Positions 15,281 to 61,207 of a DNA stretch of 62,324 nucleotides are shown piece by piece; position 1 is the stretch's first letter; the number at the start of each line of letters is the position of its first letter. Made by a program: the position numbers and the translations under genes. The DNA lies in the NCBI GenBank assembly GCA_947629405.1, contig CANRDL010000001.1:73502-135825 (forward strand), written 5' to 3'. Origin of the DNA: an uncultured Bacilli bacterium (GTDB taxonomy: Bacteria > Bacillota_I > Bacilli_A > RF39 > UBA660). Below the pieces are notes generated by a model. It was not told the DNA's origin. It ran no database searches and saw only the letters and a list, made by a program, of their open reading frames with translations.

Positions 15281-15295
15281 AGCTCTTCTTTTTTT
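15270..15295. terminator. bidirectional terminator between the convergent tig and sigK genes
   Basis: AAGAAGAG (15270-15277) pairs with CTCTTCTT (15283-15290), followed by a T-run. Confidence 0.6.
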
Positions 15296-16001
15296 ATAAA
15301 ATATTATCTGATTTAATAAATTCTCTTAACATTTTAGTAATGGCTCTTTTTTCAATGCGGGATACATAACTTCTAGATATTCCCATTTCTTTAGCTATTT
15401 CTTTTTGAGTCATTTCTTTTTTATTATTAAGACCATAGCGTTTAATTATAATTTCTTTTTCTCGGCCTTTTAAATCAGTTAAATATTTTTTTAAAAGATT
15501 TACATTATTTTTAAGATGAATAGAATCGGCATAATCTTCTGATTCATCTTTTAATACATCTATTAAATTTATTTCATTACCTTCTTTATCATAACCGATA
15601 GAGTCATTTAAAGAAACATTATTATTATTTTTTTTATTTTGTCTAAAATACATTAATATTTCATTTTCAATGCATCTTGCAGCATAAGTAGTTATTTTAG
15701 TTTTTTTATCGTTTGAATAAGAATCTATTCCTTTTATTAATCCAATTGTACCAATAGAAATTAAGTCATCAGTATCAGTATTTTTTGTATCAAATTTTTT
15801 TACAATATGCGCTACTAATCTTAAATTATGTTCAATTAGTTTATTACGGGCTTCCTTATTTCCTTTAATCATTAAATCAATATATTTTTTTTCATCTTCT
15901 GGACTTAGTGGATCAGGGAAAACATTATTGGAATAACTACCAGTAAAAAACATAGCATTTTTAACAATTTCAATTAAAATATTTAAAAACATTAAATTCA
16001 C
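15294..16001 (-). CDS. sigK: sporulation sigma factor SigK (pro-sigma-K), uninterrupted
   Basis: [46 protein letters not shown]...[17 protein letters not shown]...[16 protein letters not shown] is very close to the Bacillus SigK sequence as I recall it. A hydrophobic pro-peptide of about 22 aa is present. Confidence 0.85.
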
Positions 16002-16338: not shown

Positions 16339-17670
16339 ATGATTGAAAATAAAAAAATATTAATTCAGGGAATGGCTCGAAGCGGTGTTTCTGTTGCTAG
16401 ATTGCTGGCTAAATATAACAATGACATTACTATTACAGATTTAAATGAACAAGATAATAATTTAATAGAAGAACTAAATAATTTAAAAATAAAAGTTGTC
16501 ATAACTAAAAATCAAGATGAACTTTTAGATGAAAGTTTTGATTTGCTTGTTAAAAATCCGGCAATTCGAAAAGATAATAAAACTGTCCTAAAAGCGAAAG
16601 AATTAGGAATTCCAGTAATTAATGAAATAGAAGTTAGTTATAAATTTTTACCTAAGGATGTTAAAATAATCACAATAACAGGCTCAAATGGTAAAACTAC
16701 AACTACTACTATGGTTTATGAATTACTTAAGCGTACTAACAAATGTGTTCATCTTGGTGGAAATATAGGGATACCTTTTTCTAGTTTTGTTGAAAAAGTT
16801 AAAAGTAATGATATAGTTGTTTTAGAAATATCTGACCATCAATTATGTGATATGTATGAATTTAAATCAGATATAAGTGTAATTACTAATCTTAGTAAGG
16901 TTCATTTAGATTTTCATAATGGCTATGAAGAATATAAACAAGTAAAGAAAAAAATATTTAATAATCATGATAAAGATTCAATAGCAATATTAAATTCTTC
17001 AGATAATGATGTTTTAACACTTACGAGTGATATTCCGTCTAAAAAAATATATTTTTCTTCAACTAAAGTTGCTGATGCATATCTAAATAATAATAAAATA
17101 ATATATAATAATGAAGAAGTAATTGATTGTGATGATATAAAACTTAAGGGTAAACATAATTATGAAAATATTATGGTTGCCATAATAATTTCCAAAATGT
17201 TTAATGTTAAAAATCAAGATATAAAAGAATTTTTAAAGGAATTTGGTGGGGTAGAACATCGATTAGAATATGTAAAAACCATTAATGGTATTAAATTTTA
17301 TAACGATTCCAAAGCAACGAACAATAAATCTACAATTATTGCTCTTGATTCTTTTGTAGAACCAACTATATTAATTATGGGTGGATTGGATCGAAATATT
17401 CCTTTTGATGAATTGGCTACTCATCTTAAAAATGTAAAAAAAGTTGTATGTTATGGTGAAACTAAAAATAAAATTGCAGATTTTTGTCAAAAAAATAATG
17501 TTGATGTTATTGTATTAGATAATCTAAGAGAGGCAACTCATAAAGCGTATGAAAATGCCGTATCAGGTGATGTCATATTACTTTCTCCAGCATGTGCTTC
17601 ATGGGATCAATATAAATGTTTTGAAGATAGAGGAGAAGAATTTAAAAAAGAAATAAATTTATTAAATTAG
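16339..17670 (+). CDS. murD: UDP-N-acetylmuramoylalanine--D-glutamate ligase
   Basis: GMARSGVSVARLL and ITGSNGKTTTT motifs, with Mur ligase central and C-terminal domains. Confidence 0.95.
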   Translation: MIENKKILIQGMARSGVSVARLLAKYNNDITITDLNEQDNNLIEELNNLKIKVVITKNQDELLDESFDLLVKNPAIRKDNKTVLKAKELGIPVINEIEVSYKFLPKDVKIITITGSNGKTTTTTMVYELLKRTNKCVHLGGNIGIPFSSFVEKVKSNDIVVLEISDHQLCDMYEFKSDISVITNLSKVHLDFHNGYEEYKQVKKKIFNNHDKDSIAILNSSDNDVLTLTSDIPSKKIYFSSTKVADAYLNNNKIIYNNEEVIDCDDIKLKGKHNYENIMVAIIISKMFNVKNQDIKEFLKEFGGVEHRLEYVKTINGIKFYNDSKATNNKSTIIALDSFVEPTILIMGGLDRNIPFDELATHLKNVKKVVCYGETKNKIADFCQKNNVDVIVLDNLREATHKAYENAVSGDVILLSPACASWDQYKCFEDRGEEFKKEINLLN

Positions 17671-17683
17671 GAGGGTATAATAT

Positions 17684-19036
17684 ATGTTAAATATTAAGTT
17701 AGATTCAAGAAAAGTAATTCCTGGTGATACATTTGTTGCCATAGTAGGTAGAGAAAGTGATGGACATAATTTTATTGATTCAGCTATTAAAAATGGGGCA
17801 ACAAAAGTTATAGTATCAAAAGATAAAGATTATGGTGTTGAAAAAGTAGTTGTTGATGATACTTTGCAATATTTAAAAGAATACCTAAAAGAAAAATATG
17901 CTGATAAAATAAATTCAATTAATTTAATTGGGGTAACGGGAACTAATGGAAAAACAACATCAAGTTTTATGGCCTATGAACTTTTAAAAAAATTAGGCAA
18001 AAATGTAGCTTATATTGGAACAATGGGTTATTATTTTCAAGATGAAATAAAAGAGTTAGATAATACTACTCCTAATATTATCGATTTATATGATTTAATT
18101 TTATCATCTATTGATAAAGGTTGCGATACTATTATAATGGAAGTTAGTTCTCATGCTTTAGATCAAGACAGGATATATGGTTTTAAATTTAATATTGCCG
18201 CCTTTACTAATCTAACACAAGACCATCTGGATTATCATAAAACAATGGAAAATTATTTAAATTCAAAATTAAAAATATTAGATCATTTAAAAGATGATGG
18301 TGTAATTATTGTAAATAATGATGATGATTATGCTAAATATTTTAAAAAGAAAAACTATAAAACGATTAGTTTTGATAATGGAGATTATTTAATTACTAAT
18401 TATAAAGATAAAGATATAAGTATGGAAATTGAATTTACTTATTTAGAAAGGAATTATCAAGTTAATTTAAATTTAAAAAGTAAATTTAATGTTTATAACT
18501 TTATGATAACTCTAGCAATAATAAATAATTTAGGATATAAAATTGAAGATATTTTAAATGTAACTTCAGTTATTAAAGCACCTAAAGGAAGATGTGAACA
18601 AATTAAAGTTAAAGATGGAATAGCAGTTGTTGATTATGCTCATACCCCTGATGCCGTTTTAAAAATAATTACTGCCTTTTCTGAAAATAAAAAAGGAAAA
18701 ATAATTACTTTAATAGGTTGTGGAGGAGATAGAGATCCTAAAAAAAGACCAATTATGGGAAAAATTGCTACTGAAAAATCTGATTATGTAATTTTTACCA
18801 ATGATAATCCTCGTACTGAAGATGAAAAAAATATTATGAAAGATATTCTCGATGGTGTAAAATTAAATAATTATGAAGTAATTTATGATAGAAAAGAAGC
18901 AATTAACAAAGGTATATCTTTAATAAATAAAAATGATATATTATTAGTTTTAGGTAAAGGACATGAAAATTATCAACTTATTGGTAAAGTAAAACATCAT
19001 TTTGATGATATGGAAATAATTAAAAATGCATTATAA
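17684..19036 (+). CDS. murE: UDP-N-acetylmuramoyl-L-alanyl-D-glutamate--2,6-diaminopimelate ligase
   Basis: LDSRKVIPGDTFVA and GVTGTNGKTT motifs are present. The DNPR motif (TNDNPRTED) suggests meso-DAP specificity. Confidence 0.9.
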   Translation: MLNIKLDSRKVIPGDTFVAIVGRESDGHNFIDSAIKNGATKVIVSKDKDYGVEKVVVDDTLQYLKEYLKEKYADKINSINLIGVTGTNGKTTSSFMAYELLKKLGKNVAYIGTMGYYFQDEIKELDNTTPNIIDLYDLILSSIDKGCDTIIMEVSSHALDQDRIYGFKFNIAAFTNLTQDHLDYHKTMENYLNSKLKILDHLKDDGVIIVNNDDDYAKYFKKKNYKTISFDNGDYLITNYKDKDISMEIEFTYLERNYQVNLNLKSKFNVYNFMITLAIINNLGYKIEDILNVTSVIKAPKGRCEQIKVKDGIAVVDYAHTPDAVLKIITAFSENKKGKIITLIGCGGDRDPKKRPIMGKIATEKSDYVIFTNDNPRTEDEKNIMKDILDGVKLNNYEVIYDRKEAINKGISLINKNDILLVLGKGHENYQLIGKVKHHFDDMEIIKNAL

Positions 19037-19340: not shown

Positions 19341-20423
19341 ATGAAAAGTGCTTATATTCATATTCCTTTTTGCAAAAAAATTTGCACTTATTGTGATTTT
19401 TGTAAAATGATTTACAACAATTCATGGATTATGCAATATTTAGATGCTTTAGAAAGCGAAATTAATGATAACTATGATGGTGAAAAGTTAAAATCTATTT
19501 ATATTGGTGGTGGAACGCCATCATGTTTAAATAATGATGAACTAATCAAACTTTTTAATATTATTAATGTTTTTCAAAGAGATGAGGACATAGAATTTAC
19601 TTTTGAATGTAATTTATGTGATATAAATGAAAATTTATTGGGTATACTTAAAAAAAGTGGGGTCAATAGATTAAGCATCGGGATTGAATCATTTGATTCT
19701 AGATTACTAGAAATTATGAATCGTTCAGCTGATTATGACGATGCTTTATCTAAAATAAATTTATGTCGTAAAATGGGATTTGAAAATATTAATATTGATC
19801 TAATATATGGATTTAATATTGAGGATGTAAGCATGTTAAAATCGGATATTAAAAAGATATTAAAATTACAACCGGAACATATTTCAACTTATTCACTAAT
19901 AATAGAAGATAATACGCAAATGGGTATCAGTAAAATAAAACCAATTGATCAAGATTTAGATGCAAAAATGTATGATACTATATGCAAAATGTTAAAAAGA
20001 AAAGGTTACAATCATTATGAAATAAGTAATTTTTCTAAAATTGGTTATGAATCTTTTCATAATATAAATTATTGGAAAAATAACGAATATTATGGTTTTG
20101 GCCTTGGAGCACATGGATATATAATGGGTTTTAGATATGAAAATACTAGAAGTTTAAATGATTATCTAAAAGGAAAATTTCACTTAAAAGAAAATATTTT
20201 ATCTAAAGAAGAAAAAATGCAAAATGAACTAATGCTTTCACTTCGTCTAAAAAAAGGGATTAACATAAAAGAATTTTATCATAAATTTGGTACAAATATT
20301 CAACAGGTTTTTGATTTTAATGAAGTTATAAATAATAAAGATATTATTTATAAAAATGGCTATATTTTTATACCTGAAAATAAATTTTATGTTATGAATG
20401 AAATTTTACTGAAATTATTATGA
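19341..20423 (+). CDS. hemW: radical SAM heme chaperone HemW (HemN-like)
   Basis: MKSAYIHIPFCKKICTYCDFC is the CxxxCxxC motif in its typical N-terminal position, and a HemN_C-like tail follows. The ORF track starts at 19290, but no ribosome-binding site is visible there. Confidence 0.8.
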   Translation: MKSAYIHIPFCKKICTYCDFCKMIYNNSWIMQYLDALESEINDNYDGEKLKSIYIGGGTPSCLNNDELIKLFNIINVFQRDEDIEFTFECNLCDINENLLGILKKSGVNRLSIGIESFDSRLLEIMNRSADYDDALSKINLCRKMGFENINIDLIYGFNIEDVSMLKSDIKKILKLQPEHISTYSLIIEDNTQMGISKIKPIDQDLDAKMYDTICKMLKRKGYNHYEISNFSKIGYESFHNINYWKNNEYYGFGLGAHGYIMGFRYENTRSLNDYLKGKFHLKENILSKEEKMQNELMLSLRLKKGINIKEFYHKFGTNIQQVFDFNEVINNKDIIYKNGYIFIPENKFYVMNEILLKLL

Positions 20424-20434
20424 GGAGGAAATTT

Positions 20435-21343
20435 ATGAAAAAACTAATTATATTTATAGTATTATTAATTATTAGTTTTTTTAATATTGAAAATTGTTTA
20501 GCCATTGAAGAACCGGAAACATCTTCAAGTATTAGTTCCCAAGAACCAGTTGAAGAATCTAAAGAAGTTTCCTCATCAAGCGAAATTTCTTCAAGTGTAA
20601 AATTATCTAATGATGCTAATTTAAAATCATTAAAAATTAACAATGGAGTTTTATCTCCAAACTTTAGTCCCAATACTACCAATTATTCTTTAACAGTTAA
20701 TGAAAATATTTCTTCTGTAACCTTTAGTGCTTCTTGTAATAACTGTAAGTCAATATCAGGACTTGGTTCTTTTAAAGTATATAATGGTACAAATAATCAT
20801 ACTATAAAAGTAGTTTCCGAAGATGGACTAAATACCAAAACTTATAATATATATATTACTAAAAAAGAAAGTAACAACGAAATTGATAATTCGGTATCAG
20901 CTGATTTAAAAAGCTTAAAAGTAAGAGGCTATAAAATTTCTCCGGAATTTAGCAAATTAATAAATGAATATACTGTTACCATTAATAAAGGAGAAAAATC
21001 AATTTATATAGATTATGAAGCAGTTGAAAATGAAGCTATAGTTACTATTAAAGGAAATAAAAATTTAAAAATTGGAGTCAATAAAATTACTATAATAGTA
21101 ACCAATGGCAAAAAAGAACAAGTTTACTATTTAACTGTTAATAAAGAAAAAGCAAAAACTAAATCAAAAATTGATAAAAATACCAAAACTAATAGTAAAA
21201 AGAAAGATTATATTTTAATATCTATTATATGTGGAAGTGCTTTATTAATAATTTTAATTGCTTGGTATTTTATATTTATGCATAAAAAAGTATCTTTAAA
21301 AAGAAAAGTTAAAAAATTAAAAAAAAAAATAAATGAGAAATAA
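20435..21343 (+). CDS. secreted, C-terminally anchored protein with two cadherin-like beta-sandwich modules
   Basis: A signal peptide follows the AGGAGG site, and there is an S/E-rich linker. Two modules start LKSLKINNGVLSPNFSPNTTNYSLTV and LKSLKVRGYKISPEFSKLINEYTVTI. The C-terminus has a TM helix and a basic tail. Confidence 0.6.
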   Translation: MKKLIIFIVLLIISFFNIENCLAIEEPETSSSISSQEPVEESKEVSSSSEISSSVKLSNDANLKSLKINNGVLSPNFSPNTTNYSLTVNENISSVTFSASCNNCKSISGLGSFKVYNGTNNHTIKVVSEDGLNTKTYNIYITKKESNNEIDNSVSADLKSLKVRGYKISPEFSKLINEYTVTINKGEKSIYIDYEAVENEAIVTIKGNKNLKIGVNKITIIVTNGKKEQVYYLTVNKEKAKTKSKIDKNTKTNSKKKDYILISIICGSALLIILIAWYFIFMHKKVSLKRKVKKLKKKINEK

Positions 21344-34985: not shown

Positions 34986-36269
34986 ATGAAATATCAAGAA
35001 TATAAAGGAAATTCTTTTAATTTATATACAATTAAAACTGATAAGTTTAAAAATTGTCAAATTGAAATTATTTTTCGAAATAATATTAAAAAAGAAGATA
35101 TAACTAAAAGAATTTTTTTATCATATATATTAACTGAAGCGACTAAAAAATATAATACTCATAAACTTTATAAAGAACGATGTGAAGATTTATATAATTT
35201 ATATTTATTTGTTCAAAATAATAAAATTGGTAAAACAATTCATACAACTTTTAAAGCCGATTTTTTAAATCCTAAATATGCTATGGATGATCTTTTAACT
35301 GATGTAATCAAAATGCTAAGAGAAGTTATTTTAAATCCTAATGTTATCAATGATGCTTTTGATAAAACTTCTTTTGATATTGTGAAAAATGATATGATTG
35401 ATGAAATAAAATCAGAAAAAGATTCTCCAATGCGTCATGCAATCTTAAAGTTAATTGAAAATATAGATGAAGATTCTGCCTTAAATATTAGAATAGATGG
35501 TTATTTAGAAGATTTAGAATTAATAACCCCAGAAAGTTTATATAAATATTATAAAGAATTTATTGCTAATGATTTATGTGATATTTTTGTAATTGGGGCC
35601 CTTGATATGGATGAGGTAAATGATAAATTTAGAAAAATATTTGATCTTTCATCAATTAAAACTAATAAATTTATCTATACCGAGGAATTAAAAACTAGAA
35701 AAAAAGTAAAAGAGGTAAATGAAGAAACTAAATTAAAACAATCTAGACTGGTTGTAGGTTACAATCTTATCAATTTAAATGATTATGAAAGAAATATCGT
35801 AATGTTTTTACTTAATATTATTTTAGGTGGAGGAAGTCTTGATTCAAAATTATATCAAAATCTTCGTCAAAAAAATGCTTTATGTTATACATGTAGTAGT
35901 ATGTATCAAAAAAATAATAGTTTAATAATTATTACGACAAGCATAGATGCTAAAAATTATAAAAAAGCAGTAAGATTAATAAAGAAATCTATTTTAGATT
36001 TAAAAAAAGGTAATATTTCCAAAAATGAAATAATTGATGCTAAAAGAAATATCATTGAGTCTCTAGATATGAATAGTGACATTGCTGATGCTTTACTTGC
36101 TAATTATATTTTTCATATATATTTAGATATGCCCCTTATAGATGAAAGAAAAGTGGAATTTCAAAAAGTAACTAAAAAAGATTTAATTAATGTAGCAAAA
36201 AAGATTAAATTAAATACTATATTTTTACTAAAAGATGGAGGTTACAATGAAAAAAATAACTCTAAATAA
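34986..36269 (+). CDS. M16 (insulinase) family peptidase-like subunit lacking the HxxEH motif
   Basis: Its size and its pairing with the next gene support the call. No HxxEH motif is present. The C-terminal M16 domain pattern LGGGSLDSKLYQNLRQKNALCY is present. Confidence 0.65.
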   Translation: MKYQEYKGNSFNLYTIKTDKFKNCQIEIIFRNNIKKEDITKRIFLSYILTEATKKYNTHKLYKERCEDLYNLYLFVQNNKIGKTIHTTFKADFLNPKYAMDDLLTDVIKMLREVILNPNVINDAFDKTSFDIVKNDMIDEIKSEKDSPMRHAILKLIENIDEDSALNIRIDGYLEDLELITPESLYKYYKEFIANDLCDIFVIGALDMDEVNDKFRKIFDLSSIKTNKFIYTEELKTRKKVKEVNEETKLKQSRLVVGYNLINLNDYERNIVMFLLNIILGGGSLDSKLYQNLRQKNALCYTCSSMYQKNNSLIIITTSIDAKNYKKAVRLIKKSILDLKKGNISKNEIIDAKRNIIESLDMNSDIADALLANYIFHIYLDMPLIDERKVEFQKVTKKDLINVAKKIKLNTIFLLKDGGYNEKNNSK

Positions 36270-37548
36270 TATCGATGAAGAAATTTTATATGAAAAATCA
36301 TCTGCTGGTTTAGATATTTTTATGTTACCAAATAAAAAAGTAAAAAGTTTTTATATAACTTTAAATGTTAAATATGGTTCTTTAATCACATCATTTAAAG
36401 AAAAAAAAGCTAAGAAGTTTATAAATGTTCCAAATGGTATTGCCCATTTTATAGAGCATATGAAATTTTATCAACCAAATGGTGTAACGGCTCATGAATA
36501 TTATAATAAATTAGGTTCAAGTATAAATGCTGCAACTTCTTATAGATATACTTTTTATGAAGTGTATGCAACAACAGAATTTAAAAAGAATTTAGATTAT
36601 TTACTTGAATATGTTTATACTCCCTGTTTTAAAAATGCCGATATTAAAACGGAAAAGGGAATTATAAAAGAAGAAATAAAAATGGGAATAGATAATCCTT
36701 CAACTATGCTTTATATGACAACAAATGAGCTTTTATATCAAAAAGATAATATGAAATATAGTATTGCTGGAGATGTGGAAGATATAAATAAAATTAATTC
36801 TAAAATGCTTCAAGAAGTATACGATCATTTTTATAAACCAGATAATATGTTTTTAGTAATTACAGGTAATTTTAATCCTGAATTAGCTGTTGCGATGATC
36901 AATGAAAAAATGAAGTCATTAAAATTTAGCAATATAGGGGAAGTTGAAATAAAAAAAATTAAGGAACCTTCTACAGTTTCTTTAGATGAAAAAATATTTA
37001 ATATGGATGTAACTTTTCCTAAATTAAAATTATCCTATAAAATGCCCTATAAAAATTTTTCTAAATTAAATCTTACAAATCCGGAATTGTCAGCCTATAT
37101 TAATATTATTTTGAAAAATAAATTTGGTATAACTTCTTCATTTTATCAAAAATTAAATGAAGAACAGTTATTAAGTAGCGGCCTTTATTATAGTTGTCTT
37201 ATTAGAAAAGAAAAAGATTATATTATTATATCTATTGAGACTGAAACTAAGTATCCTGATGATATTCGTAAAAAAATAATAGCTAATTTAAAAAATTTAA
37301 AAGTTGATGAAAAAATACTTGAACGAAGTAAAAAAATATTAATAAGTAATGCGGTTTTAAGAACTGATTCTATTCAAGTTATGAATGCCTCAATTCAAAA
37401 TGACATAGTGATGTTTGATGAAATTATGCAAGATGAATACCAAATGTATAAAAATTTAAATATGACTACTTTAAATAAAGTTCTTAAATGTTTAAATTTT
37501 TCTAAAAAAGTATATGTTCAAATTAATCCAATAGATAATCAAGACTAG
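36247..37548 (+). CDS. M16 family zinc peptidase (active-site subunit)
   Basis: GIAHFIEHMKF carries the HxxEH zinc motif. ATG 36247 follows GGAGG. Confidence 0.85.
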   Translation: MKKITLNNIDEEILYEKSSAGLDIFMLPNKKVKSFYITLNVKYGSLITSFKEKKAKKFINVPNGIAHFIEHMKFYQPNGVTAHEYYNKLGSSINAATSYRYTFYEVYATTEFKKNLDYLLEYVYTPCFKNADIKTEKGIIKEEIKMGIDNPSTMLYMTTNELLYQKDNMKYSIAGDVEDINKINSKMLQEVYDHFYKPDNMFLVITGNFNPELAVAMINEKMKSLKFSNIGEVEIKKIKEPSTVSLDEKIFNMDVTFPKLKLSYKMPYKNFSKLNLTNPELSAYINIILKNKFGITSSFYQKLNEEQLLSSGLYYSCLIRKEKDYIIISIETETKYPDDIRKKIIANLKNLKVDEKILERSKKILISNAVLRTDSIQVMNASIQNDIVMFDEIMQDEYQMYKNLNMTTLNKVLKCLNFSKKVYVQINPIDNQD

Positions 37549-37572
37549 TTCTTGATTTTTTTTTTAAAATAA

Positions 37573-37795
37573 ATTCGACAAAAAATGGCAAAAATTTCCA
37601 CAAAAACTTGACAGGGGGGGGTCTATTATATAATTTCCTTAGAAAGTAAGGAAATACTATGAAGAAAAATAAACTAAAAGTAGAATTAAAAAAATATCTT
37701 AGCCAAAAAGAAAAGATAAAAAATACCTTTATAAGCTCATGTATTATTCTAGTAGTCCTTACTTTTTTTATCTTTATAACATATTCATACTTTAT
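37573..37795 (+). repeat. copy 1 of a 223-bp direct repeat (promoter plus the first 137 nt of coding sequence)
   Basis: It matches 38926-39148 at a constant offset of 1353 nt. I saw only 3 substitutions, all upstream of the -35 element. The 137 coding nt are identical. Confidence 0.9.
37608..37634 (+). promoter_or_regulatory. TTGACA-G8-TCTATTA-TATAAT promoter with a homopolymeric G tract in the spacer
   Basis: TTGACA is at 37608-37613, the G8 run at 37614-37621 and TATAAT at 37629-37634. The spacer is 15 nt as sequenced. Confidence 0.65.
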
Positions 37796-38924
37796 AAATA
37801 AAACAGGAGAAATAGAAGTAGGAAATTTTAATTCAAGTATACCTGATGTTGAAATAATAAATAAAGAAATAGTTAAAAATACCAATAATCGACAAGTTAT
37901 ATATACAATAAAAAATAACTCAAGTAGTTATACGTATTCTTATAGTTTGTTTTATAAAATAAAAGGAACTAGAATAGCAAGTATATTTTATAAAATACCA
38001 AGTAAAGAATATTCCCATCCGGAAGGAATAATAAAACCAAATGAAACTAAAAAAATATTTCTTTTATCAAGTCCGGATACCAATCATTCTTATTTACAAA
38101 ATGATTTAACCACCGATTCTTGGGATTTTCAACTTTATAGTGGATATGAATATTCAAAGCCTAAAATAGAAGGAGGATATCAAAAAATAAATTATTCTTT
38201 ACTTTCAGAAACTGCTGAATTAAAAAATTTAAATCCATCAATAGGAACATTATCTCCTAACTTTAATTCAAGTACATTAAGTTATGAGTTACATATTCCA
38301 TCTTCTGTAACTATAACTACTATAGAGTTAACTCCAGAAATATCTAATAATGGTGAAATAGATGATAAAACAATTACTATATCGTATAATGCAAATACTT
38401 ATAGATATAATGTAGATAAAAAAATAAAATTATATGCTGAAGATGGAACTTATTTAAAAACATATACGATTAGTACTATAATAAGGGATGTTGATAATGA
38501 TGAAGATTTAAATAAAATATTTGGTAACGGAAAAATACAAAGTATTGTTTTTTTAAGTCGAAATAATCAACCAATTTTTGTAAATGGTACAAATATAGGA
38601 TTTGAAGCTGGCTCAACTCTAACTATCTATGTTCCTTTAAAGTATCAAAATTTAACAACATTTAAAAATTGTATTATAAAATGGTCATATGTAGATGGAC
38701 AAAATTTTCTTTATGAAAATAACAAAGATTGGTATTATTCTTCTACAATTGTTACTGAATCTGGAGGAATATTAAATCATTACGATTCAACTAGTTTTGC
38801 TATTCCTGGTGATTATAATTATTATGAGTTAATGGGACTTACCTATGATTTACATATTGATTATTATCGATATGGGCAACATAGCACTGGTCCAACTTAT
38901 CATATAAAATTTAAAACTCATTAA
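37659..38924 (+). CDS. signal-anchored surface protein, variable family member 1 (contains a cadherin-like beta-sandwich-type module)
   Basis: The basic N-terminus plus TM anchor (aa 1-46) is identical to the next gene. A LKNLNPSIGTLSPNFNSSTLSYELHIP module and the shared KLYAEDGTY block are present. The C-terminal third is unique. Confidence 0.7.
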   Translation: MKKNKLKVELKKYLSQKEKIKNTFISSCIILVVLTFFIFITYSYFINKTGEIEVGNFNSSIPDVEIINKEIVKNTNNRQVIYTIKNNSSSYTYSYSLFYKIKGTRIASIFYKIPSKEYSHPEGIIKPNETKKIFLLSSPDTNHSYLQNDLTTDSWDFQLYSGYEYSKPKIEGGYQKINYSLLSETAELKNLNPSIGTLSPNFNSSTLSYELHIPSSVTITTIELTPEISNNGEIDDKTITISYNANTYRYNVDKKIKLYAEDGTYLKTYTISTIIRDVDNDEDLNKIFGNGKIQSIVFLSRNNQPIFVNGTNIGFEAGSTLTIYVPLKYQNLTTFKNCIIKWSYVDGQNFLYENNKDWYYSSTIVTESGGILNHYDSTSFAIPGDYNYYELMGLTYDLHIDYYRYGQHSTGPTYHIKFKTH

Positions 38925-38925
38925 G

Positions 38926-39148
38926 ATTCGACAAAAAATGGCAAATTTTTCCACAAAAGCTTGACAGGGGGGGGTCTATTATATAATTTCCTTAGAAAGT
39001 AAGGAAATACTATGAAGAAAAATAAACTAAAAGTAGAATTAAAAAAATATCTTAGCCAAAAAGAAAAGATAAAAAATACCTTTATAAGCTCATGTATTAT
39101 TCTAGTAGTCCTTACTTTTTTTATCTTTATAACATATTCATACTTTAT
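38926..39148 (+). repeat. copy 2 of the 223-bp direct repeat
   Basis: See copy 1. It starts 2 nt after the stop codon of the first paralog. Confidence 0.9.
38961..38987 (+). promoter_or_regulatory. second TTGACA-G8-TATAAT promoter
   Basis: TTGACA is at 38961-38966, the G8 run at 38967-38974 and TATAAT at 38982-38987. The spacer is 15 nt. Confidence 0.65.
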
Positions 39149-40307
39149 CAAAAATTCTGGAGAAATAGATGTAGGAAATACTTATGCAGCAATACCAAAT
39201 AAGGATGTTACAATAATAAAAAGAGGAGAAGAAGTTCCAAATAGTAATAATCAACAATATATATATACAATCAAAAATAATTCCCATACAAATACCTATT
39301 CATATAATTTAAGTTATCAAGATAAATCATCAGGTCGTTTTCGTAAAATATATTATAAAATACCAAGTAAAGAGTATTCTCATCCAGAAGGAATAATTAA
39401 AGCTGGTGAGGAGAAAAAAATTTATTTAATATTTGAACAGGGGATAACCAAAGAAGTATTAGGAGAAATATACAATCAAAATGGTGTATGGAATGGAACA
39501 ACAGGACCTTTTTATTTTAAAGTATTTTCAAATTATGAGTATACACCACCTAAAGTAGAAGAAAATTATGTAAAAATAGAATATTCACCTCTTTCAGAAA
39601 CTACTGAATTAACCGATTTAAAAAGTTATAGTGTTGGCTATTTAATCCCATTATTTAATAGTAATATTTTAAATTATGATTTATATCTCCCAGAATATTA
39701 TTCTGATGAAGCAGTTTATTTTAAACCCACTTTAACCAATAATGGTAAAGTTTTAAATAATAAAATTGATATATATGGCAATAGTTATAGATTTAACCGA
39801 GAAATAAAATTATATGCTGAAGATGGAACATATGTAAAAAGTTATAAAATAAATAATATAAATGAAAAAGAACCAAAAGGTAATATATATAGAATTTGGA
39901 TGGAAAGTGCTCAAGGTAAAGTTTTAGGTGAAGCATTTCCTGGTAAATTATCTAGTAATGAAAATTCTAAAATAGTTGATGTAACTTTATCAGTTAAAAA
40001 TAGTGAAACAACTGAAAATTATATATATTTTAATTTCACAGATTTTAATAATTATTTAAAAAAATATTATAGAAATTATTATGTTTTCTCTGTCGAAAAG
40101 TTAATTGGCAATAATTATGCTGATACTTCAGCTTCAGATCTTTTTGATCCAACTGGAAAAATATATGAATCTAGAGATTCATTAAAATTTAAACTTCATC
40201 ATTTCTTCTATAGTGACAAATATCAAATAAAAATATATATAAATTCAACATCTTCAAGTAATTTACTTAAAACATATAATATTTCATTTCAATCTCAAAA
40301 TTCTTAA
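39012..40307 (+). CDS. signal-anchored surface protein, variable family member 2
   Basis: The N-terminal 46 aa are identical to member 1. The middle is moderately similar (YYKIPSKEYSHPEGIIK, LSETTEL, KLYAEDGTY). The C-terminal third is unrelated. Confidence 0.7.
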   Translation: MKKNKLKVELKKYLSQKEKIKNTFISSCIILVVLTFFIFITYSYFIKNSGEIDVGNTYAAIPNKDVTIIKRGEEVPNSNNQQYIYTIKNNSHTNTYSYNLSYQDKSSGRFRKIYYKIPSKEYSHPEGIIKAGEEKKIYLIFEQGITKEVLGEIYNQNGVWNGTTGPFYFKVFSNYEYTPPKVEENYVKIEYSPLSETTELTDLKSYSVGYLIPLFNSNILNYDLYLPEYYSDEAVYFKPTLTNNGKVLNNKIDIYGNSYRFNREIKLYAEDGTYVKSYKINNINEKEPKGNIYRIWMESAQGKVLGEAFPGKLSSNENSKIVDVTLSVKNSETTENYIYFNFTDFNNYLKKYYRNYYVFSVEKLIGNNYADTSASDLFDPTGKIYESRDSLKFKLHHFFYSDKYQIKIYINSTSSSNLLKTYNISFQSQNS

Positions 40308-40360
40308 TTTCATATTTATTTTTTTTAAAAAATTTATTAAAATTAATTATGGTGATATTA

Positions 40361-56448: not shown

Positions 56449-56476
56449 TTGACAAATTATCATAATATGTTAATAT
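56449..56476 (+). promoter_or_regulatory. candidate promoter TTGACA-16-TAATAT for the giant repeat gene
   Basis: TTGACA is at 56449-56454 and TAATAT at 56471-56476. Confidence 0.45.
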
Positions 56477-56560
56477 ATAATTTAAAGAATTGGGCTTTAT
56501 ATTATTTATATTTTGCTGTTAAAAAGGGTATTTAAAAAAATTTTTTACTGAGGGAATTAT

Positions 56561-59500
56561 ATGAAATTAGATACTATTTATACTTATTTTAGTGATTATT
56601 CAGAAGAAAATGTAAATAAAATGTTATCATTTCTAACTGATAAAGAAATGGAGTTAATTAAAATTAGGTTTGGAAATAACTTAAAGGAGCAATTAGATAG
56701 TCAAAACGTTCCTAAAAAAGTTAATACTTCGAAATTTTATAATGAATTTTATAAATCACTAGTTCCAAAAATGAGAAATATTCTTAAAGAACTTACTAAA
56801 AATAATAATTTTTCTGAAGAAAAAATTAACGCTGCTATTAAATTATATTATAAAATTCATAAAAATTTATTTGTTTCTGATGATTTAGTTTATAATAGAG
56901 TGAAAATTGGTAAATATCTTCTTTCTAAAAAAAAGGAATATCATAATAAGACTATAGATATTGAATCATTTATTTTTCTTGACTCTTTAAATATGATATG
57001 GGATATAAATAAATTTAATTTAATAAATAGCTTAAAGTATCTAACAAATATAAAATCAGAATTATTATCTACTTTAAATAAAATTGTAAATAATTATGAT
57101 GAAAGTTCTATTGCCCATTTATTAGTTTTTCTTTATAAAAATAAACTAAATAATTATACCTTTTTAAATTGTTTATACGATGCCTCAGTAATATGTCCAA
57201 TTTTGAACAAAAAATTAACTGATGAGGAATACAAAATTTCAATTTTATATTTTAATAATATTGATTTAAATATTATTTTAAACGCATTTAATATTACCAA
57301 AGAAGAATTTAATAATATTAGAAAAAAATCATTAGATATTATTGTAAATAATTCTAGGTTATTAAAAATTAATTTAATTAATAAATCTTTGAAAAATATT
57401 AAACCAATATCAATTGAAAAAACAAAAGATCAAAATTTAAAGATAGATAATTTTAAACCAATTAATAAAAAAGTTACTAAATCTGTCCAACCTGAAAAAA
57501 TAGAAAATAAAAATTTAAATTTAGGTAATACTCCACAAATTAATCATAATGTAAAATCAAGTAAAAAATCTGGTCCAAAATTAAAGAGTATATATGAGCG
57601 ACTATCAGAATATCCACGTGAAAAAGTTGATGAAGTATTAGATAAATTATCCCAGTACGATAAAGAACTACTTAAAATTAACTATGGTGAAGATTTAGAG
57701 CATCCGAAAAGAAATTCAAATTGTAGTAAATATCAAAAAAATAAACTAAATAATATTCTTATACCCAAAATGAAAGATGCTTTAGAAAATCCTGAAAATA
57801 TTGATAGTATTTTAGCTCAAAAAAGTGGGACAAAATTAAAAAGTATATATGAGCGACTATCAGAATATCCTCGAGAAAAAGTTGATGAAGTATTAGATAA
57901 ATTATCTTCGAAAGATAAAGAATTAATTAAAATGAGCTATGGTGAGGATTTAGATAATCCTAAAAGGAATCCAAATTTTAGTCAATATCAAAGAAATAAG
58001 TTAAATATTATTCTTATACCCAAAATGAAAGATGCTTTAGAAAATCCCGAAAATATTGAAAATATATTTGCTAAAAAATCTGGTCCAAAATTAAAAAGTA
58101 TATATGAACGACTATCAGAATATCCTCGAGAAAAAGTTGATGAAGTATTAGATAAATTACCTTCAGAAGATGAAGAATTAATTAAAATGAGCTATGGTGA
58201 AGATTTAGATAATCCTAAAAGAAGTAAAGAGTTTAATGCTTTATACTCGACTAAATTAAATAATATTCTTATACCCAAAATGAAAGAGGCTTTAGAAAAT
58301 CCGGAAAATATCGATAATATATTTGCTCGAAAAAAACGTAATAAAAAATTAAAAAGTATATATGAACGATTTTCAGAATATTCACGTGAACAAGTTGATG
58401 AAGTATTAGACAAGTTACCTCAAAAAGACGAAGAATTAATTAAAATGGGCTATGGTGAAGATTTAGATCATCCGAAAAGAGATCCTAATTTTAGTCAATA
58501 TCAAAAAAATAAACTAAATAATATTCTTATACCCAAAATGAGAGAGGCTTTAGAAAATCCTAAAAATATTGAAAATACATTTGCTAAAAAAGGTGGTCTA
58601 AAATTAAAAAGTATATATGAACGACTATCAGAATATCCTCGAGAAAAAGTTGATGAAGTATTAGATAAATTACCTTCAGAAGATAAAGAATTAATTAAAA
58701 TTTGTTATGGTGAAGATTTAGATCATCCTAAAAGAGGGGAAAAATTTAATCATTGTAATAAAAATAAATTAAATAATATTCTTATACCCAAAATGAGAGA
58801 AGCTTTAGAAAATCCCGAAAATATTGATAATATATTTGTTCGAAGAAAAAGTGGACCAAAATTAAAAAGTATATATGAACGATTTTCAGAATATTCACGT
58901 GAACAAGTTGATGAAGTATTAGATAAGTTATCTCCAAAAGACGAAGAATTAATTAAAATATGCTATGGTGAAGATTTAGATCATCCTAAAAGAAGTAAAA
59001 AATTTGAAAATTTTCATTCATACAGAATAAATAATATTCTTATTCCAAAAATAAAAGAGGCTTTAGAAAATCCTGAAAATATTGATAATATATTTACTCA
59101 AGAAAGTTATGAAAAACTAAAAAGTATATATGAACGACTATCAGAATATTCACGTGAACAAGTTGATGAAGTATTAGATAAATTACCTTCATATGATAAA
59201 GAATTAATTAAGTTATGTTATGGTGAGGATTTAGATCACCCTAAAAGAGATCTGAGTTTTAAACGATATCATAAAAATAAACTAAATAATACTCTAATAC
59301 CAAAAATGAAAGAAGCTTTAGAAAATCCGGAAAAAATTGATAATATATTGACTAAAAAAGGTGGTCCAAAGTTAAAAAATATATATGAACGATTATCAAA
59401 ATATCCTAGAGAAAAAGTTGATGAAGTATTAGACAAGTTACCTCCAAAAGACAAGAAAATAATTAAGATGTGTTATGGTGAAGATTTAGAGCATCCGAAA

Positions 59501-61207
59501 AGAGATCCGAATTTTAGTATATATCATAAAAATAAACTAAATAGTACTATTATACCTCAAATGAGAGAAGCATTAGAAAACCCTGAAAATATTGATAATA
59601 TATTTGCTCAAAAAAATGGTTCAAAACTAAAAAGTATATATGAACGACTATCAGAATATCCACGTGAACAAATTGATGAAGTACTAGATAAGTTACCTCC
59701 AAAAGACGAAGAATTAATTAAAATATGTTATGGCGAAGATTTAGATCATCCTAAAAGAAGTAAAGAGTTTAAAGTCAATCATTCAAGTAAACTAAATAGA
59801 ATTCTTATACCTCAAATGAAAGAAGCTTTAGAAAATCCTAAAAATATCGATAATATATTTGCTCAAAAAAGTGGGACAAAATTAAAAAGTATATATGAGC
59901 GACTTTCAGAATATCCACGTGAGAAAGTTGATGAAGTATTAGACAAGTTATCTTCAAATGATAAAAAATTAATTAAGTTATGTTATGGTGAAGATTTAGA
60001 TCATCCTAAAAGAAGTGAAAATTTTGTTATTTCTAATTCAGTTAATTTAAATATATCAATTTTACCAAAGATAAGAAAAGCTTTAGAAGATCCTAAAAAT
60101 ATTGATAATATATTAGCTCCAAAAAAATGTGGACCAAAATTAAAAAGTATATATGAACGATTTTCAGAATATTCACGTGAACAAATTGATGAAGTATTAG
60201 ACAAGTTACCTCCAAAAGACGAAGAATTAATTAAAATTTGTTATGGTGAAGATTTAGAGCATCCTAAAAGAAATCCAAGTTTTAGTCGTTATCATAAAAC
60301 TAAACTAAACAATAATCTTATACCTCAAATGAAAGAAGCTTTAGAAAACCCTGAAAATATTGATAATATATTTGCTCAAAAAAGTGGGACAAAATTAAAA
60401 AGTATATATGAACGGTTATCCAAATATCCACGTGAACAAATTGATGAAGTACTAGATAAGTTACCTCCAAAAGACGAAGAATTAATTAAAATATGTTATG
60501 GCGAAGATTTAGATAATCCCAAAAGAAGTAAAGAATTTGAAAAAATTCATTCATACAGAATAAATAATATTCTTTTACCAAAGCTGAGAAAAATTTTAGA
60601 AGATCCTGAAAATATTGATAGCATATTAACAAAAAAATGTGGTCCAAAATTAAAAAGTATATATGAACGACTATCAGAATATCCTCGAGAAAAAGTTGAT
60701 GAAGTATTAGACAAGTTACCTCCAAAAGACAAGGAAATAATTAAAATATGTTATGGTGAGGATTTAGATCACCCTAAAAGAGATCCAAGTTTTAGTTTAT
60801 ATCATAAAAATAAACTAAATAATATTCTTATACCAAAAATTAAAAAAAATTTAGAAAATAAAAATAAAATAAATTATGAATACAAATTATCTCCAAATTC
60901 AACAGATACTAAATTAAAAAATATCATAATAGAAAATGATTTGAAATTAAACAATTTTGGAATATTATTAACCGGTGAATTAAATAACGATGAATTATTA
61001 ATAGCGTTATTAAAATTTGGGGTTAATATTTCTATAAAAGACATAGCTAATTATTTAAATATTAAGGAAATGGATGTAAAAAAAATCATTAAAAAAGTTT
61101 TAATAATATATAAAAAGAATATTAATCAATATATAGATAATATTGTTAAGGATATTGAAAATAATAAAGAACCTTTTGATGAAAGTAATATACATTTATT
61201 AAAATAA
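56561..61207 (+). CDS. 1548-aa repeat protein: a diverged N-terminal unit, a helical region with an HTH-like segment, 13 tandem 85-86-aa sigma-70-region-4-like modules, and a C-terminal region-4-like HTH
   Basis: A single uninterrupted ORF with a GAGGGA ribosome-binding site. No signal peptide or TM helix is present. The unit consensus is KLKSIYERLSEYPREKVDEVLDKLPPKDEELIKICYGEDLDHPKR-x10-LNNILIPKMKEALENPENIDNIFAQKSG. The C-terminal ISIKDIANYLNIKEMDVKKIIKKVL is HTH-like. Confidence 0.8.
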   Translation: MKLDTIYTYFSDYSEENVNKMLSFLTDKEMELIKIRFGNNLKEQLDSQNVPKKVNTSKFYNEFYKSLVPKMRNILKELTKNNNFSEEKINAAIKLYYKIHKNLFVSDDLVYNRVKIGKYLLSKKKEYHNKTIDIESFIFLDSLNMIWDINKFNLINSLKYLTNIKSELLSTLNKIVNNYDESSIAHLLVFLYKNKLNNYTFLNCLYDASVICPILNKKLTDEEYKISILYFNNIDLNIILNAFNITKEEFNNIRKKSLDIIVNNSRLLKINLINKSLKNIKPISIEKTKDQNLKIDNFKPINKKVTKSVQPEKIENKNLNLGNTPQINHNVKSSKKSGPKLKSIYERLSEYPREKVDEVLDKLSQYDKELLKINYGEDLEHPKRNSNCSKYQKNKLNNILIPKMKDALENPENIDSILAQKSGTKLKSIYERLSEYPREKVDEVLDKLSSKDKELIKMSYGEDLDNPKRNPNFSQYQRNKLNIILIPKMKDALENPENIENIFAKKSGPKLKSIYERLSEYPREKVDEVLDKLPSEDEELIKMSYGEDLDNPKRSKEFNALYSTKLNNILIPKMKEALENPENIDNIFARKKRNKKLKSIYERFSEYSREQVDEVLDKLPQKDEELIKMGYGEDLDHPKRDPNFSQYQKNKLNNILIPKMREALENPKNIENTFAKKGGLKLKSIYERLSEYPREKVDEVLDKLPSEDKELIKICYGEDLDHPKRGEKFNHCNKNKLNNILIPKMREALENPENIDNIFVRRKSGPKLKSIYERFSEYSREQVDEVLDKLSPKDEELIKICYGEDLDHPKRSKKFENFHSYRINNILIPKIKEALENPENIDNIFTQESYEKLKSIYERLSEYSREQVDEVLDKLPSYDKELIKLCYGEDLDHPKRDLSFKRYHKNKLNNTLIPKMKEALENPEKIDNILTKKGGPKLKNIYERLSKYPREKVDEVLDKLPPKDKKIIKMCYGEDLEHPKRDPNFSIYHKNKLNSTIIPQMREALENPENIDNIFAQKNGSKLKSIYERLSEYPREQIDEVLDKLPPKDEELIKICYGEDLDHPKRSKEFKVNHSSKLNRILIPQMKEALENPKNIDNIFAQKSGTKLKSIYERLSEYPREKVDEVLDKLSSNDKKLIKLCYGEDLDHPKRSENFVISNSVNLNISILPKIRKALEDPKNIDNILAPKKCGPKLKSIYERFSEYSREQIDEVLDKLPPKDEELIKICYGEDLEHPKRNPSFSRYHKTKLNNNLIPQMKEALENPENIDNIFAQKSGTKLKSIYERLSKYPREQIDEVLDKLPPKDEELIKICYGEDLDNPKRSKEFEKIHSYRINNILLPKLRKILEDPENIDSILTKKCGPKLKSIYERLSEYPREKVDEVLDKLPPKDKEIIKICYGEDLDHPKRDPSFSLYHKNKLNNILIPKIKKNLENKNKINYEYKLSPNSTDTKLKNIIIENDLKLNNFGILLTGELNNDELLIALLKFGVNISIKDIANYLNIKEMDVKKIIKKVLIIYKKNINQYIDNIVKDIENNKEPFDESNIHLLK
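57569..60893 (+). repeat. 13 in-frame tandem repeats with a period of 255 nt (three units of 258 nt)
   Basis: Unit starts were read at 57569, 57824, 58079 ... 58592 ... 60638. The span from the first to the last start is 3069 nt, which equals 9x255 + 3x258. Confidence 0.9.

Follow-up and report, generated by a model that had tools for sequence, protein, structure and literature searches.

The vlp genes of Mycoplasma hyorhinis are tandem paralogs with a conserved promoter, 5' leader, and N-terminus, divergent surface parts, and a poly-A tract in the promoter spacer; they encode lipoproteins with C-terminal tandem repeats in an AT-rich genome. A homopolymeric run of G is the sequence most prone to slippage. 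In Neisseria meningitidis, the poly-G tract of porA lies between the -35 and -10 hexamers, and surface expression is high with 11G, approximately 2-fold lower with 10G, and approximately 13-fold lower with 9G (PMC3639595). In Treponema pallidum, poly-G tracts of at least 8 nucleotides (nt) are found in the promoters of several putative surface-protein genes (tp0126, tprE/G/J, and tprL); that of tp0126 lies between -35 and -10 with an optimum spacer of 17 nt, and in the tprL tract one modal length dominates in vivo while minority variants persist (PMC7864442). All tracts of at least G8 are variable in Campylobacter jejuni NCTC 11168, and in the Campylobacter phasome approximately 80% of the tracts lie within coding sequence, 53% being G9 and 26% G10 (PMC6321876). 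Here we describe an uninterrupted run of eight G (G8) in the -35/-10 spacers of two adjacent genes, A and B, for predicted surface proteins, located between yfmH and tex in a 62,324-nt stretch of DNA from an uncultured Bacilli bacterium (contig CANRDL010000001.1, 135,825 nt in length; the whole stretch is referred to as the window).

In architecture, this locus appears to combine a promoter-spacer homopolymer of the porA/tp0126 type with a vlp-like gene family sharing a common 5' end. The best single reading, which we favor tentatively, is a slipped-strand switch of the porA/tp0126 type with G8 as its low resting state. As in porA, the poly-G run occupies the -35/-10 spacer of a (here predicted) surface-protein promoter; unlike porA, a single gene with 9–11 G that is polymorphic among isolates, the tract here is a near-constant G8 in a multigene family, and the host belongs to a Gram-positive-type, uncultured lineage of 23% GC. 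T. pallidum likewise has poly-G promoters in a paralogous gene family, but its GC content of approximately 53% makes G runs less exceptional, its tprL tract overlaps the -10 hexamer, its tprE/G/J promoters are permissive at 8 G or fewer, and its tract lengths were measured directly. Campylobacter is alike in its AT-rich genome, where contingency genes for surface structures are the only places with long G/C runs; here, in contrast, all tracts lie in promoters and 97% are G8. The comparison with Mycoplasma vlp made in the initial annotation held for the architecture, namely tandem paralogs with a conserved promoter and 5' region (98.7% cassette identity; approximately 15 loci). It did not hold for the proteins or the host: the tract is poly-G instead of poly-A, no usable lipobox or lipoprotein signal is present in the N-terminus, which is read as a signal anchor, there are no in-frame tandem repeats at the C-terminus or elsewhere, TGA is a stop codon in a standard genetic code, and Mur ligases are present. 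On these grounds, membership of the Vlp/Vsa systems of Mollicutes was rejected. A literature search centered on RF39, with the lineage guessed, returned no report of phase variation for comparable gut Bacilli.

The G8 promoter and its gene family

Reading of positions 37608–37634 on the plus strand gave TTGACA GGGGGGGG TCTATTA TATAAT, in which both hexamers matched the sigma-70 consensus at 6/6 positions and the spacer was 15 nt. This agreed with the layout described in the initial annotation, including the G8 tract at 37614–37621, and its arithmetic that G9–G11 would give spacers of 16–18 nt was correct. A second, identical promoter at 38961–38987 (plus strand) heads gene B. The two G8 tracts were the only G/C runs of at least 6 nt in the window, no other run being longer than 5, as had been remarked from the first reading. 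The plus strand of the window consists of A 42.2%, T 34.7%, G 13.8%, and C 9.2% (GC 23%), the G content being slightly off the earlier figure of about 12%, and the expected number of G runs of at least 8 nt with independent, identically distributed bases was 0.007, which bore out the claim that such a run is improbable by chance.

In our own scan of upstream regions, other promoters with 11–12/12 consensus positions located 5' of window genes had spacers of 17–18 nt, and therefore the G8 promoters lie 2 nt below the genome norm. No other -35/-10 register near the tract yielded a plausible spacer of 16–18 nt. Both G8 promoters were missed by a generic promoter scanner, for the sole reason that it demands a spacer of 16–18 nt. 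The 15-nt spacer should make the G8 promoter weak, judging from these spacings.

The two promoters form part of an expression cassette of approximately 223 bp, which heads both genes and contains the promoter, a 9-bp palindrome, a ribosome-binding site (RBS), and the first 46 codons. The copies at 37573–37795 and 38926–39148 were 98.7% identical over 223 nt; past the cassette, the DNA identity between A and B fell to approximately 70% and then to 40–60%. The A and B proteins were 47% identical overall, with residues 1–46 identical. An AlphaFold2 model of A (mean predicted local distance difference test score of 79.5) had a helix at residues 16–49 followed by three beta-sandwich domains. A Foldseek search of the model against the PDB found only generic tandem Ig/FnIII/cadherin arrays, by which no specific function could be assigned, and Pfam gave a weak, sub-threshold match to PF12733 (Cadherin-like). 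The sole Cys (ISSC, residue 28) precedes the hydrophobic segment and lies within a single long helix, so that a lipoprotein reading was rejected and a signal anchor was indicated. Tandem Repeats Finder detected in A and B just weak AT-rich repeats of approximately 2–3 copies, none of them in-frame tandem repeats. From the model, A and B are predicted to be membrane-anchored, surface-exposed proteins.

Among 5.8 billion proteins, 24 matches made up the family, all from ENA or NCBI metagenomes, and ENA, NCBI, and Logan assemblies were the only sources in which the lineage was recovered. Scans of JGI metagenomes with the cassette allowing a free spacer and with ACAAAARCTTGACWGGGGGG gave 0 matches each, which indicated that the lineage is absent from the JGI collection. 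A scan of GTDB genomes with the family alignment found only one distant relative, with 39% identity and without a G tract, in bin23 of 'uncultured Bacilli bacterium Lapin-016' (L006). The family alignment showed three zones: near-invariant residues 1–46, a moderately conserved first domain (YSHPEGIIKP), and a mosaic, hypervariable middle and C-terminus. For example, P0004 is A-like for the first two thirds and ends in an unrelated C-terminal part, and P0003, P0005, and P0006 have their first approximately 190 residues in common and diverge after them. A distant subgroup with the N-terminus MAK... (P0012, P0019, P0021, and L006) has neither the cassette nor the G tract; its promoters are of the extended -10 type.

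When the fetched member contigs were pooled with the window (220,530 nt), all 31 G/C runs of at least 6 nt were this promoter tract; the 31 promoter copies represent approximately 15 non-redundant promoters, at chromosomal sites between yfmH and tex, beside rpoB, and in a three-gene array running from a prsA-like gene to ftsK. Twenty copies were TTGACA-G8-TCTATTA with a spacer of 15 nt. In relatives, the remainder of the spacer was either an 8-nt variant or an 11-nt variant. The 8-nt variants followed TTGACT-G8 and gave spacers of 16 nt (TTCTATTA in 6 copies, TTATATTA in 1, and ACTTATTA in 1, the last in L023, which is syntenic with the window), and the 11-nt variant TACTATTATTA followed TTGACA-G8 and gave a spacer of 19 nt in 2 copies, both 5' of an unrelated 562-amino acid (aa) protein in L020 and L021. 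The remaining copy, TTGACA-G9-TCTATTA at gene 2 of L001, had a spacer of 16 nt. The 562-aa protein has a classical signal peptide and the half-promoter ACAAAAACTTGACA-G8 (L020:1032-1090; same coordinates in L021); its spacer of 19 nt may also be read as 17 nt to TATATA, and it has a different leader and no palindrome. Contigs with an identical RuvB were either broken at the repeat or from strains without the genes, and added no tract lengths.

Divergence was compared among 14 non-redundant family copies. In the 30-nt stretch that runs from the -10 hexamer up to the ATG, 1 column was variable, codons 1–46 had a mean pairwise difference of 6.8% (maximum 12.3%) with 13 codons varying synonymously only, and codons 47–92 had a mean pairwise difference of 37.8%. 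The divergence of the leader indicated that the copies are no brand-new duplicates and hence that G8 is actively maintained. Purifying selection or gene conversion preserves promoter, leader, and an unbroken G8. No indel of the promoter and leader lay outside the spacer; each fell beside or within the G run, with resulting lengths of 15, 16, or 19 nt, and spacer length is the one evolving parameter of the promoter.

The cassette, its palindrome, and gene turnover

The 9-bp perfect palindrome of the cassette overlaps the final two bases of the -10 hexamer and extends across the predicted start site (approximately 37641) and the RBS AAGGA (37649–37653). A read-through RNA from 37622 to 37675 folded at -12.3 kcal/mol with the RBS paired, against a mean of -4.3 kcal/mol for shuffled sequences (z = -3.4), and an RNA starting at 37641 folded at just -1.0 kcal/mol. 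A terminator scan found no terminators in either the A–B or the B–tex interval; the hairpin could therefore block translation of B on transcripts from the A promoter. The palindrome could equally be a DNA operator, and both its hairpin and operator roles are our inferences from the sequence. Gene B is separated from tex-ruvA-ruvB by 41 nt (40308–40348) with no terminator, so that strong activation of the B promoter would lead to transcription of these housekeeping genes as well.

An Rfam search of 37400–39200 matched no family. The cassette had no match in phage and plasmid collections, and a mobile-element origin was rejected on this basis. No flanking inverted repeats were found around the promoter or the genes besides the palindrome itself, and no recombinase domain was found among the genes called in the fetched loci or in the approximately 40 of 65 window open reading frames (ORFs) of at least 100 aa that were scanned. 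With neither flanking inverted repeats nor a recombinase domain in the genes scanned, an invertible promoter switched by site-specific inversion was rejected. In the upstream element, the A(n)T(m) block (37590–37597, 38943–38950, and the homologous positions of L001, L007, L008, and L011) occurs as A5T3, A3T5, A2T6, and A4T4. The sum of n and m is always 8, so that the A/T boundary shifts by substitution and the length stays constant.

Gene content between yfmH and tex differed among strains whose flanks were >97% identical to the window. Where the window has A and B, L023 has one family member of 517 aa, L001 and L007 have other gene pairs (gene 2 of L007 being 94.8% identical to B), and L025 and L026 have no family gene. 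In L025, a 688-nt segment (L025:5411-6098) replaces window positions 37610–40078; the flanks of L025 and L026 were 97–98% identical. The segment contains an acyltransferase gene (PF01553) split into two ORFs of 88 aa, its left junction falls exactly at CTT/GACA of the -35 hexamer, and 228 nt from the 3' end of B are kept as a remnant. Elsewhere, identical P0018 was found behind two upstream contexts and promoter variants, one in L020 and L021 and the other in L022, and P0009 and P0016 alternate behind one upstream gene. Comparison of L022:1-1496 with L011:140-754 and L020:2932-4293 placed a crossover between the tract and approximately codon 46; L022 represents either a true cassette recombination or a chimeric low-coverage contig. 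Some of the turnover contigs are short and of low coverage, and chimeric assembly is possible for them. The gene turnover between strains with >97% identity indicated that recombination drives part of the variation, and this comparison shows cassette-mediated exchange to be a real source of variation in the family, whatever the G tract does.

Contigs L010, L012, L016, L019, L027, and L028–L031 ended repeatedly inside or beside the cassette. A 223-bp repeat would be expected to produce such breaks, and the family is thus probably under-represented and fragmented in metagenome-assembled genomes (MAGs). In addition, L003, L004, and L005 (positions 1-52) all end 131 nt 5' of P0012, a member without the G tract. 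Their 52-nt left flank diverges from L002:3870-3921 in the loop of the greA terminator hairpin and may be a structural variant or the end of an inversion; the 52-mer was absent elsewhere in the fetched DNA.

Slipped-strand switching and other explanations

If slippage operates at these promoters, G8 with its 15-nt spacer would be the stable state in which a gene rests at low expression. An individual gene would be turned up when its tract slipped during replication to G9 or G10 (spacers of 16–17 nt), and such tracts, being longer and less stable, would revert to G8. Most cells of a population would then have G8, and different family members would be expressed in a rare few. The palindrome would make each gene dependent on its own promoter: a read-through RNA would have both arms and the hairpin would hide the RBS, and an RNA from the cassette promoter would be without the 5' arm and translatable. 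In this scheme, we infer a useful slippage rate, control of activity by tract length, the transcription start, and the role of the hairpin.

Switching would fit the position of the tract, exactly in the spacer of a promoter with 12/12 consensus positions whose spacing appears sub-optimal against the norm of 17–18 nt. It is also consistent with the retention of an uninterrupted G run in a 23%-GC genome while leader codons diverged, and with the one G9 allele (L001 gene 2) and the confinement of indels to the spacer. Moreover, the predicted products, membrane-anchored three-beta-sandwich proteins with a conserved N-terminus and a hypervariable C-terminus, would suit it. The phase switch proposed in the initial annotation thus agreed with the anatomy (spacer position, consensus hexamers, short spacer, hypervariable genes, and absence of any other long G/C run) and not with the nearly invariant length; invariance across strains, which that annotation had named as evidence against its proposal, was nearly what we found.

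Several results weigh against switching. Among hypermutable lengths, G8 is one of the shortest. In the consensus assemblies, 30/31 tracts were G8 and 1/31 was G9 (97% G8), and the single G9, at 19x coverage, could be an assembly error. The same locus in 3–5 samples was always G8 (P0011 in 4, P0010 and P0016 in 3–4), and strain-level changes of spacer length came mostly from non-G bases beside the tract. Since the -35 hexamer and G8 are kept as a half at a spacer of 19 nt, G8 itself is conserved and not the total spacer length. The spread of the Campylobacter phasome (53% G9, 26% G10; PMC6321876) also differs from the near-uniform G8 seen here. If a spacer of 15 nt were OFF, most family members would be OFF in every sample. 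The two sides would be reconciled if G9 and G10 were rarer, less stable 'up' states, which would be invisible to consensus assemblies. Minority lengths do not appear in consensus assemblies, which can therefore neither demonstrate nor rule out switching, and membership of the phase-variable class is unproven.

Alternatively, G8 could be a cis element of fixed length that does not switch, within a conventionally regulated promoter, with diversity arising by recombination only, an explanation that we regard as a serious rival, somewhat less likely than switching. A regulator or sigma factor reading ACAAAAACTTGAC(A/T)GGGGGGGG might use G8 as a contact or structural element, or G8 might act as a rigid spacer that tunes an over-strong promoter, and control might be exerted, for example, by a dimeric repressor on the palindrome overlapping the -10 hexamer and the start site. 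The conservation of G8 in all copies but one despite the 6.8% divergence of leader codons and the constancy of the tract between samples at the same locus would be accounted for in this way, as would the -35 and G8 half-module 5' of the unrelated 562-aa secreted-protein gene with its other spacer and leader. Furthermore, TTGACA pairs with a spacer of 15 nt and TTGACT with one of 16 nt, which resembles compensation for constant promoter strength; the perfect palindrome lies across the start site, a typical operator position; and an alternative sigma-factor gene in the window (15294–16001, minus strand) is a candidate reader of the ACAAAAACTTGAC-G8 motif. However, any sequence could serve as a fixed element, and the choice of the most slippage-prone one at 23% GC is left unexplained. 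The spacers are sub-optimal at 15 or 19 nt and not tuned to 17, a G9 allele is present, no regulator gene was linked to any examined locus, and we know of no bacterial regulator that needs a G8 tract.

It is improbable that the cassette, and perhaps the G tract with it, serves mainly as a recombination handle or hot spot, a site of homology or breakage for swapping, replacing, or deleting variable gene bodies, with the G tract mattering for DNA exchange instead of promoter spacing. The differing gene content at yfmH and tex in strains >97% identical, the L025 junction in the -35 hexamer, the two contexts of P0018, the alternation of P0009 and P0016, and mosaic proteins such as P0004, P0005, and P0006 would all be expected of such a handle, but identity over approximately 200 bp suffices for homologous recombination and makes the G tract unneeded, the L022 crossover lies 3' of the tract, and chimeras across the repeat may be present among the short, low-coverage contigs. 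Neither a recombinase gene among the scanned genes of the loci nor flanking inverted repeats were found, and exchange accounts for gene turnover, not for eight G in a spacer. A sequencing or assembly artifact, either poly-G from two-color chemistry or a collapsed repeat, is very improbable: poly-G artifacts do occur in Illumina two-color data and many related contigs break at the cassette, but the tract recurred at one internal position, flanked on either side by unique sequence, in 31 copies that come from an NCBI MAG and >10 independent ENA assemblies, and this recurrence indicated that it is no artifact. Slipped-strand switching might also act together with exchange. A two-tier antigenic variation in walled, low-GC gut Bacilli, in which stochastic G8-tract switching of individual genes and a hairpin silencing read-through are joined by use of a portable cassette of approximately 200 bp as a homology handle for exchange, replacement, or deletion of hypervariable gene bodies between loci and strains, is conceivable but unlikely.

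If the tract switches, contingency loci would extend from pathogens (Neisseria, Campylobacter, Treponema, and Mycoplasma) to uncultured commensal gut Bacilli, with a new family of three-beta-sandwich surface proteins on which hosts or phages probably exert pressure. One cassette, one tract, and many natural alleles make the system compact. That G8 is nearly invariant also shows that a tract in the right position of an assembly is not enough for phase variation to be called. Both strain tracking and the reading of fragmented MAGs would be affected by the turnover of the locus between strains.

Window features and neighboring genes

Coordinates of the features are collected in Table 1. Nine long ORFs in the window stop at TGA, and the standard genetic code was assigned for this reason. 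The Mur ligases mentioned above are encoded at 16339–19036 (a MurD-like and a second Mur ligase gene). The housekeeping genes are of the Firmicute type and encode dGTPase, YfmF, and YfmH (34986–37548), as well as Tex, RuvA, RuvB, QueA, and Tgt; further genes encode an Era-like GTPase, RecO, tRNA synthetases, thymidine kinase, and trigger factor. No mismatch-repair genes were found among the part of the window ORFs that was scanned.

Table 1. Promoters, cassettes, and genes located in the window
Feature	Position	Strand	Description
-35 hexamer, gene A	37608..37613	+	TTGACA, 6/6 consensus; TTGACA or TTGACT in 31/31 copies
G8 homopolymer, gene A	37614..37621	+	Exactly 8 nt; first 8 nt of the 15-nt spacer
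Remaining spacer, gene A	37622..37628	+	TCTATTA
-10 hexamer, gene A	37629..37634	+	TATAAT, 6/6 consensus; invariant across all copies
-35 hexamer, gene B	38961..38966	+	TTGACA
Second G8 homopolymer	38967..38974	+	Promoter identical to that of gene A
-10 hexamer, gene B	38982..38987	+	TATAAT
Expression cassette, copy 1	37573..37795	+	Upstream element, promoter, palindrome, RBS, codons 1–46 of gene A
Expression cassette, copy 2	38926..39148	+	Same parts, gene B
Upstream element TTCGACAAAAAATGGCA, then A(n)T(m) block and CC	37574..37599	+	Common to approximately half of related copies
9-bp perfect palindrome ATTTCCTTA-gaaag-TAAGGAAAT	37633..37655	+	2 matches in the window against 0.01 expected
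Second palindrome and RBS	38986..39008	+	Gene B copy
Weak terminator-like hairpin TCAAGA-ctagt-TCTTGA, then T10	37539..37565	+	End of yfmH; under the GC requirement of the scanner
Gene A	37659..38924	+	421 aa; predicted basic N-terminal tail, transmembrane helix, three beta-sandwich domains
Gene B	39012..40307	+	431 aa; paralog of A; cluster representative P0008
TTGACA-17-TATAAT	3793		Window promoter scan
TTGACA-17-TATAAT	47941	-	Window promoter scan
TTGACT-17-TATAAT	25392		Window promoter scan
TAGACA-17-TATAAT	45196		Window promoter scan

The possible alternative sigma factor encoded at 15294–16001 (minus strand) is a 234-aa protein of the sigma-70 family with regions 2 and 4. The gene at 56449–61207 encodes a 1548-aa, internally repetitive protein with many fragmentary Pfam matches and no significant single stretch. 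It is preceded by TTGACA-21-TATAAT, whose spacer is also off the norm, but without a homopolymer. A 307-aa protein encoded at 20420–21343 has two Cadherin-like beta-sandwich domains (PF12733, E = 3e-14) and no G-tract promoter; tblastn showed a distant similarity between this protein and the middle domain of A and B (E = 1e-4).

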